Source: Candidatus Hodarchaeota archaeon
Lineage (GTDB): Archaea > Asgardarchaeota > Lokiarchaeia > Sigyniarchaeales > SOKP01
Direction: 5' to 3'
Assembly: GCA_048886685.1 (NCBI GenBank)
Contig: JBHLKM010000009.1
Location: 1 to 64,000, forward strand
DNA: 64,000 nt
The notes under the pieces were generated by a model. That model searched no databases, was not told where the DNA came from, and saw nothing but the letters and a program-made list of their open reading frames with translations. Positions 1 through 10,839 of the stretch are shown piece by piece. Every line of letters begins with the position of its first letter. Position 1 is the stretch's first letter. Made by a program: the position numbers and the translations under genes.

Positions 1-377
1 TCCTTATCATCAAAATCTGCTGCTAAAAGTTTATTAGTTATTTGTTGAATACTTAAAGAAACCATATCTAAGTTAGCATTGCTTTTTGTTACTGTGCATA
101 ATATGTATTTAGGACCTGCTTTTGACAAAATAATGATACCTTCAACGCCTTCTATGAGAATTCGTTTTAAATCTCCTCGAGCAAATTCTTTTACAGCACC
201 TTTAGAAATATTTACAATTGTAGCACTTATCGCAGCAACAAAATTATTATTTGTTTCTTTAGTAAGTTCAGAGTATAAGGGTAATCCTTCTTTAGTCAAA
301 AGCATCAATCCTTGGATATCAGGATTATCTCCAAATAAATTTCTATCTCTTCTTTTTTGAAAATCATCAAGCTCCAT
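1..377 (-). CDS. Roadblock/LC7 (MglB-like) domain protein, 3' end runs off window
   Basis: Not in ORF track. Manual translation from ATG at 377 (AGGTGA SD-like upstream): MELDDFQKRRDRNLFGDNPDIQGLMLLTKEGLPLYSEL...FVAAISATIVNISKGAVKEFARGDLKRILIEGVEGIIILSKAGPKYILCTVTKSNANLDMV..., the typical roadblock pattern; no stop before base 1. Confidence 0.9.
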   Translation of the reverse strand, partial: MELDDFQKRRDRNLFGDNPDIQGLMLLTKEGLPLYSELTKETNNNFVAAISATIVNISKGAVKEFARGDLKRILIEGVEGIIILSKAGPKYILCTVTKSNANLDMVSLSIQQITNKLLAADFDDK

Positions 378-822
378 AGAATTCACCTTAAATTAATTTT
401 CAAATTTCATTTTCTATAGTTTTAAAAGTCTTTTCTTTATTCAACACAAATATATCTAAAATTAAGTCTATAGGATATTGTATCAATTCACCTATATAAT
501 AATTTTATCTAGTTATTACTTAATTTTACCTATTTTATTTTTTTATATATAATAATTGTTAAAAGATTTCCCCTTGCCACTATCCCACTAATTAATAATA
601 TATTCATGCAAAATTTAGTATTAATTTTGAAGAAGTAAAGAAGTGATACATTTTTCTACTCGAATTTTTATTAGTAAATTATAGTTAAGTTCTATATTTT
701 TAAATTAGGACTGTTAATGTTGAGGTTGGTAAGGATATAATAATCAAATATTTTGTTATAAAGTAATTCAGATAGTAGTAATAGGGCTTAATTTAATAAG
801 AGTGAATAAAGGTTGTTTATAT

Positions 823-3800
823 ATGAGAACTTTAATTTTAAGTCATCGGAATTCATATTTACCTCCTTCTATATTTTTACAAATACCCGAAAAGATTCAA
901 AGAGATGATCTCAAACAGGTTCCTTTATTGATTGATATCTATGAAAAAGGTTTTTTCATACATACGTTTGGAACTTTTAAAACAGCAAATTTAATTTTTA
1001 ATGTTCCAAGCAAATATTCAAACAGCGGAATAGAGCGTCTTTTAATTTCATTAGTTGTTGATGGTAAATCGAACATCAAATCAACGCTAGCTGAGGAATT
1101 TTTAGAAGGGTTAGTAGAAGAGTTCAAAAAAATCGAAGATGTTTTCAAGGCTTTTTATGTAGATTCTATGTTTGATGAAGGAGATCATACTAAACTAGAG
1201 GAAATTAGAAGATTACTTAATGTTTTTTATATCTCTTTTCCTGAAGAAGAAGTCATATTTGAACAAAAGGAGGCAAGAGTATTGATTTTCGGGCTTTCCC
1301 AGGCAGGTAAAACAACAATCATTAAAACGAGGAGAAAATCAGTATCAAAGACAACTTTTCCAACTATAAATGTAGACATCTCTAAAATTATAGTTAATAA
1401 TGTATCTATGTTAACTTATGATATCCCTGGAAAATATAAAGCGAAAGAAATATGGAAGCCCTATCTAAGAAACCAAGATGGATTGATATTTGTTTTAGAT
1501 GTTACTGATACAATAAGGTTCTCATATGCTCGTGAAATATTTCATGAAATTGCGAGGAAACCAGAATTAAGTGAGTTGCCACTTCTAATTCTTTTTAATA
1601 AGACTGACAGAAAACAATCAGATATAAAAGCTCTAGAAGAAATCATGGGAGTACAGAATCTCGGGAAAAGACCAATAAAAACATTTTTGACAAGTGGGAT
1701 TTTGAATATAAACATTGACGAGGCGTTTAATTGGCTTTCACTTAAAATTGCTGAGAGAGCTGAACAATACACTCCTAGAACGGAGGTTGGAATAATTTTT
1801 TGTCGATGGGATGAGAATCTTGGTATTAAAATAGAAGCAGTATATCCTAAAGATGCTTTTGAAAATCCAGAATTGATATCTGTTAAAAGTTTTTCAATAT
1901 CACAGTTTATTTTTGGAGGTGATGAATTTAGACCAACCTCAGTAATTCTTCCATTTCCTCACCTAAATTCAAATGCCGCGATTTATTTTGATTCTGTTCC
2001 TAATGAGGACATTAGGGGAGGTGTATTACCTTTATCTTTAATAGTTTATTACAATGAAAAAATTCCTAAAAACATAATTAACCAATTTAGCACTTTTATT
2101 CTTAACCATTTTGAAGACATAAAAAAGAATTATTTAGATAAAAATCAGATAATAGATACTCTCGAATCTATTCATTCTACAATAAATAATCAAATTGATT
2201 TATACCAACCCTCGATTGAAGCACTCAAGATGGCCGAATTACGCTATGAAGCTTTATTTAAAGCTGCTCGAGATGCCATTTTGATAATTGATAGAAAATC
2301 AGGATTAATAATGGATGTGAACCAAGCAGCCGAAGAATTATTTCAACGACCGTTTGAAGATTTTATTGGTTTGCATTCCAGTCAAATATTAAGTGAGATC
2401 ATTGATATAGATTTTAATGAAGAGGTTTTTGAACAACTTAATTATCCTTTTCCTTTAAGATTAGAGGTTATTGATAATTCTGGTAATTTTATTCCCGTTG
2501 AAATTAGTGTCAGTGAAGTTCAGATAGGAGGTCAAATCTACATTCAATATATTCTTCGAGATATTCGTAAGAGAATAGAAGCAGAAATTAAATTAAAGTA
2601 TTCTGAAACAAAATACCGTTTCTTATTTAAAGAATCCCCCTTTTCTGTTCTTTTAATTGATCCTAAAGGTTCTTTAGTAGATTTTAATCCGGCTTTAGAG
2701 AAGACATTAGGGTATACGAGAGAGGAATTAATTGGAAGAAAATTTGTAGATCTTTCAATAATCCATCGAGATTATATCGTGGACGTTCTTAAAAGATTGA
2801 AAAAAGAAGAAAGAGGTAGGGATTTTCATCCATTAGAAATTCAACTCTATCAAAAAAATGGCAATCTTATTTGGGTAAATATGCAAACATCCTTAGTAGA
2901 TATTGGAGATGACACTTTTTATCAAATTATTTGTCAGAATATAACAGAAGATAAAAAAATTGAACAGGAATTAATGAAAATTTCAAGATTAAAAGCAATT
3001 ATTACAGGGATTGCATCGAGATTTGTTGGCATACAGGATTTTAGTCAGGCAATGATAGAATCACTTAGAGATATAGGCGAGTTTGTTAACGCAACACGAG
3101 TGTATCTTTACATTCTTAATGAAAATTTTAAATTTATAAAAAGAAATTATGAGTGGTATGGTAAGGTGATGTTTCCCCAAGAAAGTTTACCTGAAAATAT
3201 GCAAATGAGTAATTTTCCATGGTTTACTGAGAAATTACTAGAATCTGATTATTTATATGTTAAAAATGTAGACAGGCTTCCTACAGAAGCTGTAAATTTA
3301 AAATACTTTCTTGAAAATCAAGAAGTAAACAACTTTTTAACATTTTCCGTTAAAATAAACGGGATTTTAGAAGCAATACTTTGTTTTGATAATATTAATG
3401 ATAGTGATTATTGGATAGAAGAAAACTTGGACTTAATCAGCATTATTTCAGACCTTCTTAAAAATGTATTACTACGTAAATTAGCTGAAGAGTATTTACG
3501 CAGAAGTGAAGAAAGTATCCACCAAGAATTTGATAGAGAGTATTTTTACAAAGAACTATTCGTAAATGATATAAATTCTATAATAGAGAACATTCAATTA
3601 TCACTAAACGAATATGAAAAGGCTGATAATCAAATTATACTAAAAAGTAAGAGAGAGATATTGGATTCTATTAAAGATCAATGTATTAATAGTAAACTCT
3701 TAATAGATATAATACGAAAATTAACGATGATCAATCAAACAAAGCTTTTCATTGAACCTGTAAATTTAAATAGTGTAATCGATAATGTTAAAGAATTTAT

Positions 3801-4194
3801 TACAAATAGTTATTCCAATAAAGAAATTATTATAGATGTTGAGCATCCAACTGATAATTTATATGTAAAAGCTGATAAATTTCTAATAGATCTTTTTGTC
3901 AATATCCTTATCAGTTCAATTCGATATAATAAAAACTCAACAATTGAGATAAAAATTATTATCTTTAGAAGCCAGCAGGATAACATAAATTACATCAAAG
4001 TGAAATTTATAGATTATCAAAAAGAGATTTTAAATGTGGGCAAAGAAATGATATTCCAGAAAGAAAGAGAAAAGGATAGTAAGATTAAAGAGATAATATT
4101 AGGATTCCTTTTGGTAGAACGTATCTTAAATAATTACAATGGAAAAATATGGGTTGAAGGAGATTCTTTTGTTATATTATTACCCGAAGCATGA
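823..4194 (+). CDS. Multidomain signalling protein: longin/uDENN-like - Arf-family small GTPase - longin/uDENN-like - PAS - PAS - GAF - degenerate histidine kinase (HisKA/HATPase pseudokinase)
   Basis: G1 GLSQAGKTT, G2 TTFPTINVD, G3 DIPGK, Arf-like IWKPYLRNQDGLIFVLD, G4 NKTD; GIIFCRWDENLGIKIEAVYP; PAS motifs (RYEALF..DAILIID..DVNQAAEELF; KYRFLF..DFNPALEKTLGYTREELIG); GAF (ATRVYLY..YEW..FPWF); HK-like tail with FVND in place of xHD. ATG 823 preferred over GTG 802. Confidence 0.85.
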   Translation: MRTLILSHRNSYLPPSIFLQIPEKIQRDDLKQVPLLIDIYEKGFFIHTFGTFKTANLIFNVPSKYSNSGIERLLISLVVDGKSNIKSTLAEEFLEGLVEEFKKIEDVFKAFYVDSMFDEGDHTKLEEIRRLLNVFYISFPEEEVIFEQKEARVLIFGLSQAGKTTIIKTRRKSVSKTTFPTINVDISKIIVNNVSMLTYDIPGKYKAKEIWKPYLRNQDGLIFVLDVTDTIRFSYAREIFHEIARKPELSELPLLILFNKTDRKQSDIKALEEIMGVQNLGKRPIKTFLTSGILNINIDEAFNWLSLKIAERAEQYTPRTEVGIIFCRWDENLGIKIEAVYPKDAFENPELISVKSFSISQFIFGGDEFRPTSVILPFPHLNSNAAIYFDSVPNEDIRGGVLPLSLIVYYNEKIPKNIINQFSTFILNHFEDIKKNYLDKNQIIDTLESIHSTINNQIDLYQPSIEALKMAELRYEALFKAARDAILIIDRKSGLIMDVNQAAEELFQRPFEDFIGLHSSQILSEIIDIDFNEEVFEQLNYPFPLRLEVIDNSGNFIPVEISVSEVQIGGQIYIQYILRDIRKRIEAEIKLKYSETKYRFLFKESPFSVLLIDPKGSLVDFNPALEKTLGYTREELIGRKFVDLSIIHRDYIVDVLKRLKKEERGRDFHPLEIQLYQKNGNLIWVNMQTSLVDIGDDTFYQIICQNITEDKKIEQELMKISRLKAIITGIASRFVGIQDFSQAMIESLRDIGEFVNATRVYLYILNENFKFIKRNYEWYGKVMFPQESLPENMQMSNFPWFTEKLLESDYLYVKNVDRLPTEAVNLKYFLENQEVNNFLTFSVKINGILEAILCFDNINDSDYWIEENLDLISIISDLLKNVLLRKLAEEYLRRSEESIHQEFDREYFYKELFVNDINSIIENIQLSLNEYEKADNQIILKSKREILDSIKDQCINSKLLIDIIRKLTMINQTKLFIEPVNLNSVIDNVKEFITNSYSNKEIIIDVEHPTDNLYVKADKFLIDLFVNILISSIRYNKNSTIEIKIIIFRSQQDNINYIKVKFIDYQKEILNVGKEMIFQKEREKDSKIKEIILGFLLVERILNNYNGKIWVEGDSFVILLPEA

Positions 4195-4270
4195 GAAACT
4201 TTTCAAAATTCTCAATTTATTGGATCATTTATAGATTAAATAAAACAGATTACTAAGAGTGGTGATTGCG

Positions 4271-4753
4271 ATGGAAAATCCTAACGAAAACGAGGTATCT
4301 CAAAAACAAATGGGAATATCAAAAAAGAAAAAGAAAAATCCCGTAGGGCAATTTTTTCTAAGTGTAAAGAAAGAATTTAATGATGGTTTGAAACAAATTA
4401 AGACATCTTGGGAGAAAATTATAAAAAATATCAAAGAGAACGATCCGAAGAGAAAGCGATTTAAAAAACTCTATGGAAAATTAGAGGAGATAGAAACTCA
4501 GATATCTGAAATAAAGGATGATACCCAAGAAATTAAGCTGAAAATTGATGATGTTGCTGAAGTAATCGATAAACTTATGGAAGATATAGCTGACATTGAG
4601 GCACATATGAAAAAAAATCTGGGATCTGATTGGAAAATCCTAAAAAGCTCTTGGAAAATGTGTAAGAAGGGTGAGATTACTAAAAAGGAATTTATTAAGA
4701 TAGGACTATCGAAAATTGGGAAGAGATTTGCGAGTATCTTTATTAGTTTATGA
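4271..4753 (+). CDS. Hypothetical coiled-coil protein with basic amphipathic C-terminus
   Basis: Heptad run LEEIETQISEIKDDTQEIKLKIDDVAEVIDKL; GGTGA SD-like before ATG 4271; same strand just downstream of the GTPase fusion. Confidence 0.7.
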   Translation: MENPNENEVSQKQMGISKKKKKNPVGQFFLSVKKEFNDGLKQIKTSWEKIIKNIKENDPKRKRFKKLYGKLEEIETQISEIKDDTQEIKLKIDDVAEVIDKLMEDIADIEAHMKKNLGSDWKILKSSWKMCKKGEITKKEFIKIGLSKIGKRFASIFISL

Positions 4754-5100: not shown

Positions 5101-5643
5101 ATGTCAAGAGTAGATATAAATGAGGAATTTACAACTCAATTAAGGGATGAGCAATTTCTTTATTTTGCGGAAAATTCGAGTTTAGGCATAGCGTTAATAC
5201 AGAGAGGGTATTTAAAGTATTTTAATAAGAAATTTGCTGAAATTTTTCGATATAGCGAAGATGAGATATTACAGTGGAAGAAACGAGAATTCTATAAAAT
5301 AGTACATTCAGAGGATTTACCAAAATTAGTAAAAAATTTTAAAGTTGAGGATGGAAATACAGTTTTAGTTAGATTTCGAGGGGTAACAAAAGACCAGAAA
5401 ATATTCGAGTTAGAGAACTACATATGTATGATAAAATATAACAATAAGACAGCTTATCTCTCGAGTTATGTTCCTCTAGAAGAAATTCAAGAAGAACCAG
5501 AAACTTATGAGCCTAAGACAATAAAAATACAAATAAAAAAGAGAATAGCTATCGACTATCATCCAGATATAGTTAGACTCTTACGGAATAATAATATAAA
5601 GTTTGATATTATTGAGCAAAGCTCTTTTCGAGAAGAAGATTAA
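5101..5643 (+). CDS. Stand-alone PAS domain protein
   Basis: FAENSSLGIALIQRGYLKYFNKKFAEIFRYSEDEI...IVHSEDL..FRGVTKD is a PAS signature. Confidence 0.8.
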   Translation: MSRVDINEEFTTQLRDEQFLYFAENSSLGIALIQRGYLKYFNKKFAEIFRYSEDEILQWKKREFYKIVHSEDLPKLVKNFKVEDGNTVLVRFRGVTKDQKIFELENYICMIKYNNKTAYLSSYVPLEEIQEEPETYEPKTIKIQIKKRIAIDYHPDIVRLLRNNNIKFDIIEQSSFREED

Positions 5644-6076: not shown

Positions 6077-7087
6077 TTACCGTTCTTTATTAGATGAAGT
6101 GATTTTGAATGCTCTTTGTAAATAATTTCTATAATTATTAGTTAACTTTTGTCTATAATATGGATTCTTTTCTGTGCTTTTTTTATAATTTTTGTGGGCT
6201 CTTTGCTTCCATTTTACAAAATTTTGCGTTTCAGAACCATTCCATATAGCTTTCTTGCCCGTGACTTTCTCAAATATATATTGTTCTGTGATTTTCTCTA
6301 TATCTTCTTTTGGTTTTAAAGGTTTTTTATCTTTAGGTTTTGTAGGTTTTTTCTCTTTAACATCCTTGTTCTTGAGAAGAGAGTGCAAATGGAGAGCAAA
6401 TAATTTTGTAGGTTTTCCTTTATAATGAGTGATCTTTCCGGTTTCTAAACGATATTTATTCTTTATTTTTGCTTTCCAATTATGAAATGCTTTTGTTTCA
6501 GTTTCATTCCAAATAGCGTTTTTATTAGTTAATTTCTCGAACACCATCAACTCTAAATCTTCTGTTTTGAAGTCTTCTACTTTCTTTGCTCTCTCTTTTG
6601 GGGGTTCTTTTTGTTGTGCTGATACAGGTTTTGCTTTTTTATTAAAAATTTCTAAGATCTCAGAGCAATTTATTTTCTTACCATTACCAATTGTAAAAAA
6701 GGGATCATTTATTGCATCTAGATTGACGGAAAAATCGAAAATTTGAGGATCATCCAAATACGGACCTAAATATTTCGCTAAAACAATAATAGTCTCATTA
6801 TTTTGAGAAATATTAATATGATTATTCGAAGTGGAGGTTGTTTGATATAAGGAGAATTGGTTAAAATCCTTTATTTTATCAATTTCTTTTATTTCTTCTT
6901 TAGTTTTAATAATTCGGTCATATTTTAGCTCTTTTTTTCCATTAATAAGAACATCAAGAGCTGTTAAATTGTATTTTGAATTTTTCTTTAGTGTATTTCT
7001 AACAATAAATTTCACGAATTTTTTTATTTGATTCCATTTTGAGTTTTTTGCGATACCAATAATTTCTCTTAAACTGACTTCAGACAT
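6077..7087 (-). CDS. Basic hypothetical protein with four short internal repeats (F/Y-x3-T-x-K-x3-W/Y-x4-T-x2-F/Y)
   Basis: FEKLTNKNAIWNETETKAFHNWK / YRLETGKITHYKGKPTKLF / FEKVTGKKAIWNGSETQNFVKWK / YKKSTEKNPYYRQKLTNNY. Confidence 0.75.
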   Translation of the reverse strand: MSEVSLREIIGIAKNSKWNQIKKFVKFIVRNTLKKNSKYNLTALDVLINGKKELKYDRIIKTKEEIKEIDKIKDFNQFSLYQTTSTSNNHINISQNNETIIVLAKYLGPYLDDPQIFDFSVNLDAINDPFFTIGNGKKINCSEILEIFNKKAKPVSAQQKEPPKERAKKVEDFKTEDLELMVFEKLTNKNAIWNETETKAFHNWKAKIKNKYRLETGKITHYKGKPTKLFALHLHSLLKNKDVKEKKPTKPKDKKPLKPKEDIEKITEQYIFEKVTGKKAIWNGSETQNFVKWKQRAHKNYKKSTEKNPYYRQKLTNNYRNYLQRAFKITSSNKER

Positions 7088-10320: not shown

Positions 10321-10839
10321 TTAACCTCCATTCTTTACCATACGCCGCGTAAGTTCAAGAAAAGCTTTTTCAACATTTTCACCAGTTTTAGCTGAGGTTT
10401 CAATATATAAACAATTTTCATTTTTAGCATATTGTTCTACTGTATTCTTATCTATAATCTGACCAATTTCAGGTATTAAATCTGATTTATTTCCTACTAT
10501 TACTTTAGGTATTTCTTTTATCATAATACTACGCATTTCTGAAAGCCAAGTTTTCATGCCTGAAAATGTATGTTGTCTTGAAAGATCAAAGGTAATCAAT
10601 GCACCAGATGCACCCTCATAAAAACTACGGTGTAGAAATTTGAATCTTTCCTGACCTCCAATATCCCATATATGGAGTTTTACAAATTTTGATGGTTCAT
10701 ATTCCACCGTTTTAGTTAAAAAATCAACTCCAATAGTCAACTTATATTTTAAGGCAAATTCATTATTCACAAATCTATTTAATAAACTTGTTTTACCTAC
10801 CGCACTAGGTCCGACAATTATAACTTTATGGGATTCCAT
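10321..10839 (-). CDS. Rab-like small GTPase
   Basis: GPSAVGKTS, YKLTIGVDF, WDIGGQERF, NKSD, ETSAK; no C-terminal Cys. Confidence 0.93.
   Translation of the reverse strand: MESHKVIIVGPSAVGKTSLLNRFVNNEFALKYKLTIGVDFLTKTVEYEPSKFVKLHIWDIGGQERFKFLHRSFYEGASGALITFDLSRQHTFSGMKTWLSEMRSIMIKEIPKVIVGNKSDLIPEIGQIIDKNTVEQYAKNENCLYIETSAKTGENVEKAFLELTRRMVKNGG

Follow-up and report, generated by a model that had tools for sequence, protein, structure and literature searches.

We analyzed the window, a stretch of 64,000 nucleotides at the start of contig C9 (JBHLKM010000009.1) of a Candidatus Hodarchaeota archaeon, and focused on a gene near its beginning. This gene encodes a protein in which an Arf-like GTPase (G) domain is placed between two predicted longin domains and is followed by two PAS domains, a GAF domain and a pseudo-histidine kinase. 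The genome is a metagenome bin of 4.4 Mb with 31% GC and 8% contamination. One frame on the forward strand (802-4194) gives 1,130 amino acids (aa) from a GTG start and 1,123 aa from the ATG at 823. Since the homologues start at this ATG, 1,123 aa was taken as the protein length. An initial annotation, made from the sequence alone, had described one long open reading frame (ORF) of 1,120 aa; the single frame stands, and the length was slightly off. Pfam recovered its domain order: Arf (E 3e-35), two PAS domains (PAS_9, 6e-28), a weak GAF match (0.035) and HATPase_c (2.7e-4, below the cut-off) were found in sequence. The protein is soluble: no 19-residue window exceeds a hydropathy of 1.35, and a transmembrane segment is absent. 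The divergent Roadblock/LC7 gene that had been noticed upstream is real. The AT-rich spacer between the two genes, annotated as ~445 bp, measures about 447 bp between the ATG starts and 415 bp between the GTG starts. A promoter scan of the spacer gave chance-level matches only, with models of the bacterial type. The features are listed in Table 1.

Table 1. Features at the beginning of the window
Feature	Position	Strand	Basis or remark
Roadblock/LC7 gene	3..386	-	Pfam 4e-16; divergent; no stop before contig end
AT-rich intergenic spacer	387..822	.	20% GC, against 29% in the ORF
Whole gene	823..4194	+	1,123 aa: longin-Arf-like GTPase-longin-PAS-PAS-GAF-pseudo-histidine kinase
Longin 1 (aa 1-142), NPRL2/FLCN-like	823..1248	+	Structure model (pLDDT 95), VIA, Foldseek
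Arf-like G domain (aa 147-316)	1261..1770	+	Pfam Arf 3e-35; ARF1 match 1e-22
Longin 2 (aa 319-466)	1777..2220	+	VIA to 8yqg_B, hhalign to longin 1
PAS1	2221..2592	+	Pfam; subfamily located directly behind longins
PAS2	2593..2982	+	Pfam PAS_9, TIGR00229
GAF	3025..3492	+	Pfam GAF 0.035; 1.5e-14 to GAF of kinase C1:87901
Pseudo-histidine kinase	3505..4191	+	Alignment with 15 kinases of the genome

Querying with aa 1-470 retrieved 130 proteins; the majority measure 1,100-1,130 aa and show the Pfam matches of the window protein, and most bear the name Promethearchaeota. More than 100 clusters have equal length and domain order, and the full order longin-G-longin-PAS-PAS-GAF-kinase recurs at the 36 genome loci where the family was located. 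The records of the relatives (Promethearchaeota/Lokiarchaeia) agree with the Asgard origin that had been proposed. The host bin carries contamination and several catalytic residues of the protein are gone, which would suit an assembly chimera or a decaying pseudogene. However, codon-by-codon comparison with 13 other genomes showed the intact 1,123-codon frame with zero indels and zero stops. The ratio of nonsynonymous to synonymous substitution rates (dN/dS) among the five closest relatives was 0.065-0.17 in each domain, and was lowest in PAS1 (0.065) and the G domain (0.067); the value for the pseudokinase was 0.11. Every domain of the protein is under purifying selection. Furthermore, contigs of public runs span each domain junction. 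Those of run X1, which is possibly the source sample of the genome, cover 575-1448, 1890-2274, 2944-3259 and 3230-3607, and a contig of run X5, from a separate study, spans the junction at 1544-1905. A chimera at the domain junctions, the risk raised with the initial annotation, is refuted by these results, as is a pseudogene; we give this explanation practically no weight.

The two domains flanking the G domain had been suggested to be longin or uDENN domains. In predicted models, both have the order strand-strand-helix-three strands-helices. Longin 1, modelled alone (predicted local distance difference test, pLDDT, 95) and compared by VIA, gave Z 13.3 with the Loki longin 8yqg_B, 13.0 with NPRL2 (8fw5_B) and 12.8 with 6nzd_H of the folliculin complex; C9orf72/SMCR8 and the AP and TRAPP longins scored lower (Z about 10). 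Its top five Foldseek matches were GATOR1 entries (E 2e-5 to 9e-5). Longin 2 matched 8yqg_B over 134 residues (Z 16.1, root mean square deviation 2.3). By hhalign, longin 1 and longin 2 did not match significantly with earlier, narrower alignments; with broader alignments the probability was 96% (E 4.5e-9) and the motifs were in register. Pfam and sequence searches of solved structures identified neither longin and returned just weak Folliculin, Afi1 and NPRL2 matches. ESM Atlas matches, at scores of 0.80-0.83, are leads only. Structure matches and hhalign agree: on either side of the G domain lies a longin of the NPRL2/FLCN/SMCR8 class, and the two are homologous to each other. Thus, the per-domain structure search supported the longin part of the suggestion; the DENN part fell away, as no DENN domain is present. 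An AlphaFold model of aa 1-466 gave good individual domains, with a predicted template modelling score (pTM) of 0.47, too low to fix the domain arrangement, and a complex prediction of longin 1, longin 2, the G domain and GTP scored 0.08 against a mark of 0.32, which speaks neither for nor against such a complex. Longin 2 falls into one class with the longins found in receiver-longin and longin-GTPase proteins of this genome, and its last helix runs into PAS1.

In eukaryotes, longins of this class turn off Arf and Rag switches. In the predicted models, R67 of longin 1 and R398 of longin 2 lie in the loop between strands 4 and 5, which we take to be the Arg-finger loop of NPRL2 R78, SMCR8 R147, R164. 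Across 130 diverse sequences of longin 1, G14, P15, R67 and G68 are each at least 90% conserved, and the GP is present in 26/26 members of the short class (about 950 aa). The window protein has P-P at positions 14-15 and N-S at 67-68, with no GP. In longin 2, W329 is invariant and D330 near-invariant, and G334 and R398-G399-G400 are further marks; the Pro of the GP is mostly lost in the family, and the window protein has G-I. R398 is kept in 117/119 proteins and R67 in 75/119, the window protein being among those that lost R67. Eukaryotic longins that are GTPase-activating proteins (GAPs) share a GP motif and an Arg finger, as do some Asgard longins (PMC12290439). GAP activity on ARF1 needs SMCR8 R147, the finger, and C9orf72 W33-D34, which holds ARF1 (PMC8213707). 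Judged by residues, marks that belong to an SMCR8-like longin, to an Arf-like substrate and to a C9orf72-like longin appear to be united on a single polypeptide in this family.

The G domain, annotated at about 1270-1750, is present, and the domain behind it, annotated at about 1785-2200, starts with GIIFCRWD near 1790. The G-domain motifs are GLSQAGKT (G1), Thr181 (G2), DIPGK (G3), NKTD (G4) and TSG (G5). G1, G2, G4 and G5 are intact, and in G3 Lys204 replaces the catalytic switch-II Gln. Lys is found in the window protein and 49/60 close relatives, and Gln in 26/26 of the short class. Because P-P, N67 and K204 stand beside four intact G motifs, established GTPase chemistry predicts that the window protein should bind GTP and hydrolyse it poorly. 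By VIA, the domain gave Z 20-23 with Arf/Arl/Sar1, 20.5 with HodArfR1 and 16-17 with Rag. In a tree of the genome's own GTPases, it fell outside the Rab-like group, and its sole supported sister was its paralogue. The G domain is preceded by the longin and a short acidic linker, and the N-terminal amphipathic membrane helix is absent, as in many AArfs. Since there is no membrane helix, the protein is not a trafficking Arf.

Behind the longins, PAS1 gave a median of 87 bits with PAS domains behind longin 2 types and 64 bits with those behind longin 1 types, against about 6 bits with other PAS domains. The GAF domain is missing from the shorter (about 950 aa) paralogue class. The tail consists of a dimer core and a GHKL-type fold, and matches intact kinases of the genome with E 2e-34. 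Compared with 15 kinases of the genome, it shows Asn915 at the site of the phospho-His, Ser in place of the N-box Asn, DYQKE instead of DxGxG (G1) and EIILG without GxGxG (G2). With all four motifs lost, the tail is by its sequence a catalytically dead pseudokinase, as had been annotated. All four motifs are intact in none of the 107 GTPase-bearing members, in 5/12 longin-kinases without a GTPase and in 7/8 plain kinases of the same subfamily; no GAF-class member (0/79) keeps three, and a few basal GTPase-bearing members keep His, the N box and G1. The counts in GTPase-bearing and GTPase-free members suggest that phosphotransfer may be dispensable once the G-longin module is present, although these groups are related and the counts show a trend and are not a test. 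As a separate observation, His900 of P0001, 15 residues before the lost phospho-His, is almost invariant in the family, where plain kinases have Arg or similar.

The order of residue loss was read from the family tree. GP was lost first and the Gly after R67 next, followed by the change of the switch-II Gln to Lys in a 52-member clade. Inside this clade R67 was lost repeatedly, and in a second lineage Gln changed to Tyr and R67 was lost. Among 132 longin-G-longin proteins, R67 is kept in 71/71 with Gln and 5/5 with His, and is lost in 44/56 others. In independent pairs, loss of R67 with Gln retained was never seen. The joint loss of Gln and R67 fits a longin 1 that serves the G domain of its own chain. 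The alignments show stepwise decay of residues predicted to be catalytic across the family, with the window copy as a derived form that has lost GP, Arg67 and Gln. Since its clade lost these residues, it is probably a slow, GTP-held switch.

With a longin-2 profile, the family was detected in 20/53 genomes of the window's taxonomic family and in 0/196 other genomes of the phylum searched. Among these genomes, the protein family is patchy and lineage-specific, occurring in one Lokiarchaeia family. Copies of 75-88% identity (L040, L045 and several NCBI names) carry labels such as Thorarchaeota, Hodarchaeota or Odinarchaeota. Because the GTDB-wide search found the family in one Lokiarchaeia family only, these labels probably reflect mislabelled or mixed bins. 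The genome also encodes a paralogue of 944 aa at C18:69872-72703, which has no GAF domain; it keeps GP, Arg67, Gln and His, and its N box and G boxes are decayed. A 314-aa GTPase gene lies directly upstream of the 944-aa paralogue in three genomes (G000 C18:68816-72703, L020, L062), and is not found there in L061, L063 and L064.

Relatives also combine the domains differently. They include longin-G, longin-PAS(n)-kinase, longin-longin-PAS-kinase and longin-G-longin proteins with other tails; two-domain longin-G forms are common and make up 39 of the top 144 representatives, and the longin-PAS(n)-kinases have the same longin and special PAS1. Six longin-G-longin proteins (P0116, P0117, P0119-P0121, P0130) have no sensors and carry a tail of ~170 aa with two CxxC pairs, which is zinc-finger-like. 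Core-only longin-G-longin forms of 470-500 aa were seen as L021, P0191, P0199 and P0205, and in P0146 and P0162, which are longin-longin-PAS(-kinase), the G domain is missing or unrecognisable. The same genome encodes receiver-longin and longin-G proteins. Two receiver-longins with the WD..GP and RG marks are encoded in cassettes, each together with genes for a histidine kinase and a free-standing small GTPase (C1:102685-106803, L074; C4:158412-165308, L073), so kinase-longin-GTPase wiring exists in this genome as separate genes. The C4 cluster additionally has two longin-GTPase genes, and further receiver-longin genes lie at C13:70841 and C14:38149, the latter without marks. An origin of the window protein as a collapsed cassette of this kind found no support, as its G domain is not sister to the cassette GTPases in the G-domain tree. 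Neither this tree nor a longin-1 tree could fix the order of domain gain. The most fitting description of the protein is a longin-PAS-kinase in the sense of Liu et al. (10.1101/2020.10.19.343400) that in addition contains a G domain and a second longin.

Starting from the demonstrated domain order, the two homologous longins of the GAP class, the dead kinase, the domain-wide purifying selection and the residue decay, we infer every functional step of the following mechanism. We favor it tentatively, with somewhat less than even confidence: the protein would be a soluble dimer whose longins form a clamp around the G domain, and the sensors would act on this clamp by way of the helix into longin 2. 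The dead kinase core may serve as the dimer scaffold. PAS-PAS-GAF would bind small ligands, and the signal would pass along the helix linking PAS1 to longin 2. The longins would pair and cup the G domain, in cis or across the dimer, like SMCR8 and C9orf72 around ARF1, with the Arg finger from longin 1 and the Trp-Asp holding face from longin 2. The sensors would set the nucleotide state or the exposure of the G domain, which would replace phosphotransfer as the output. In basal members and the C18 paralogue, which keep GP, Arg67 and Gln, the assembly may be a built-in GAP that the sensors gate. Hydrolysis in the window's clade is probably slow or absent; there the G domain may be a GTP-held binding surface, shown or hidden by the longin clamp. 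A broader form of this reading is possible but on the whole doubtful: the family would be a single-chain, ligand-gated counterpart of the C9orf72-SMCR8-ARF1 GAP complex that unites GAP and substrate. It would then be the first native regulator to be identified for any Asgard Arf-like GTPase, and its natural series from active forms (GP, Arg, Gln, near-intact kinase) to GTP-held, kinase-dead ones would record a switch from phosphotransfer to GTPase output.

Several observations weigh against a built-in GAP with the GTPase as output. In the window's clade the catalytic Gln is Lys and longin 1 is without GAP marks, and the window copy itself has neither GP nor Arg67. The joint loss of Gln and Arg amounts to three independent pairs only (sign test, p 0.25). 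Moreover, the GP and RG marks are kept just as well in 35/36 longin-kinases without a G domain and in 14/14 longin-G proteins in which G3 has decayed; their role may therefore be structural or concern other GTPases. The retention of R398 despite the loss of Gln is left unexplained by the mechanism. Finally, the placement of R67 and R398 at the site of NPRL2 R78 and SMCR8 R147 is read from the model topology, and an alignment to NPRL2 covered the GP strand alone, weakly (E 0.3).

The flow of the signal could be reversed, with the longins, G domain, PAS and GAF as inputs for GTP level or partner binding, and with a pseudokinase output that tunes an intact kinase or phosphorylated receiver. Domains that precede the dimer core of a kinase normally serve as inputs, and a tuning role of this kind is taken by DivL in Caulobacter. 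Longin-PAS-kinases with intact motifs exist, basal members keep His, the N box and G1, the surface of the dead kinase is conserved at a dN/dS of 0.11, and eight kinases of the same subfamily are encoded in the genome. We nevertheless consider a reversed flow unlikely, if a serious competitor: no kinase or receiver gene stands beside the gene at any of the 36 loci, selective constraint is strongest on the G domain and PAS1, and the decay of the kinase tracks the presence of the G-longin module. The persistence of R398 even where the protein's own Gln and R67 are lost would be explained if longin 2 were a sensor-gated GAP for separate small GTPases and the built-in G domain a GTP-held lock or docking unit, not a substrate. 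Longin 2 is joined directly to PAS1 and resembles the receiver-longin outputs of the cassettes; five loci have a Rab-type GTPase upstream, and in three genomes the paralogue is preceded by a second GTPase gene. But the Pro of the GP is mostly gone from longin 2, the neighbouring GTPases are not constant, and the G-domain tree does not pair the built-in domain with the GTPases of the cassettes; we regard this, too, as unlikely.

An improbable reading takes the longins as dimerisation modules only, as in the Rag C-terminal domains, and the G domains as a nucleotide-dependent dimer with no Arg finger. Asgard longin/roadblock-GTPase fusions have been modelled as Rag-like dimers (PMC10933270), the Loki longin 8yqg is a homodimer according to the title of the structure, and the longin marks persist without a G domain. 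However, a Rag-like dimer leaves unexplained why R67 is lost only where Gln is lost and why a C9orf72-like Trp-Asp is present, and the G domain is nearer to Arf than to Rag. The initial annotation had the divergent Roadblock protein act in trans, which would make it a dedicated GAP or guanine nucleotide exchange factor by the logic of MglA/MglB or the conservons. Small GTPases of the MglA/B and actinobacterial G-protein systems are under roadblock control (PMC13343842), and the loss of Gln could create a need for a partner. Yet a roadblock was found within 1.5 kb at 0/18 orthologous loci, and within 6 kb at 1/36 loci (genomes partly shared with the 18), 2.3 kb off behind two genes. By our estimate, about two would be expected by chance, given 39 roadblock proteins per 4.4 Mb and flanks that total roughly 260 kb. 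In the three closest relatives (87-89% identity) other genes lie upstream, and any one neighbour family is seen at six of the 36 loci at most. The window Roadblock is 54% identical to a copy that occurs throughout the genus, in this genome at C1:284583, and no closer match (none above ~55%) was found in 35 genomes of the genus, although the clade with Gln changed to Lys is wide. It is a local, diverged, genome-specific duplicate and an incidental neighbour. Thus, synteny with roadblock, which had been proposed as a check, is not conserved, and we judge a role of this copy in trans very improbable. Genes for GTPases and for roadblocks seldom share an operon in Asgard archaea, which leaves room for some roadblock to bind the protein; nothing points to the window's copy, and no specific part is given to Roadblock in the favored mechanism.

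Fusions of NPRL2-like longins to two-component domains are reported in many cases in Asgard genomes (Liu et al., 10.1101/2020.10.19.343400, Fig. 5c), where Asgard growth control is proposed to couple eukaryote-type regulators to two-component systems. The window protein, with an NPRL2-like longin 1 joined to PAS, GAF and a kinase fold, belongs to this class. Compared with the text of that article, it differs in the extra Arf-like G domain, the second longin and the dead kinase; the text mentions no GTPase in such fusions, though Fig. 5c may show one. Asgard GTPases fused to a longin, a roadblock or both, and ArfR/AArf GTPases, have also been published (Tran 2024; PMC10933270; 10.1101/2024.02.28.582541; PMC11914678). 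The window protein shares with the longin-GTPase fusions an Arf-like G domain with an N-terminal longin, and unlike them it has the G domain between two longins and a sensor chassis, and no amphipathic helix.

The ARF GAP C9orf72-SMCR8(-WDR41) and the Rag GAPs FLCN-FNIP2 and NPRL2-NPRL3 of GATOR1 likewise bring two homologous longins to an Arf-like GTPase (PMC8213707, PMC12290439), and the family has, like C9orf72-SMCR8, the GP and loop Arg on one longin and Trp-Asp on the other. However, it is one chain instead of three, has prokaryotic sensors, and has no DENN, NPRL C-terminal domain or WD40 anchor; in contrast to longin GAP complexes, its longins precede the G domain and PAS, and the window copy has no GP, Arg67 or Gln. 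By analogy, the family may work like the longin GAP complexes, of which it is not a member. A kinase-like sensor, a small GTPase and a roadblock/longin-fold regulator also come together in the actinobacterial conservons and in Myxococcus MglA/MglB/RomR. Both are conserved, as operons or as complexes, and use MglA-type GTPases with a roadblock GAP; CvnA8 of the actinobacterial systems is an active kinase (PMC13343842). Here, by contrast, we find a single fusion with longins and a dead kinase, and the linkage to roadblock is not conserved.

The initial annotation had spoken of a new system. This is overstated, as longin/two-component fusions, longin/GTPase fusions and GP/Arg longins as possible GAPs are known from Asgard. 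Of the full combination, no description was found in a literature survey of incomplete coverage, and it appears new. Our analysis adds a direct test of the Roadblock link, which failed, and the residue-loss series. The regulators of Asgard Arf-like GTPases "remain to be established" (PMC11914678), the GAP activity of Asgard GP/Arg longins and the GTPase on which it acts are open (PMC12290439), and, as the two seldom share an operon, it is difficult to assign longins to their GTPases (PMC10933270). In this family the regulator and its candidate substrate are fused, so that one soluble 470-aa fragment suffices for a test, and the two paralogues of the genome are a natural pair predicted from sequence to be active and inactive. 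Because the family was found in one Lokiarchaeia family only, it offers a lineage-specific model for longin chemistry and is not a direct ancestor of the eukaryotic complexes.

The interval of 1-4753 that was first annotated covers the ORF and the Roadblock gene, which belong to it, and a gene at 4259-4753 (+), which does not, as it stands beside the family's gene at 1/36 loci (L031). It encodes a 164-aa lysine-rich coiled-coil protein; its V-SNARE match (5e-5) was below the cut-off and was dismissed as coiled-coil. A 180-aa single-PAS protein is encoded at 5101-5643 (+); two close relatives, L031 and L033, have it downstream of the gene as well. At 6077-7087 (-) lies the gene for a 336-aa basic protein without a Pfam match, which has two copies of a ~50-aa unit with AIWN. 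The Rab-type GTPase genes at five loci (L043, L051-L054) lie up to ~3.5 kb upstream, with another just downstream in L054, and these loci may be one clade. In the window, an intact Rab-like small GTPase of 172 aa (Pfam Ras 2e-49) is encoded 6 kb downstream, at 10321-10839 (-).

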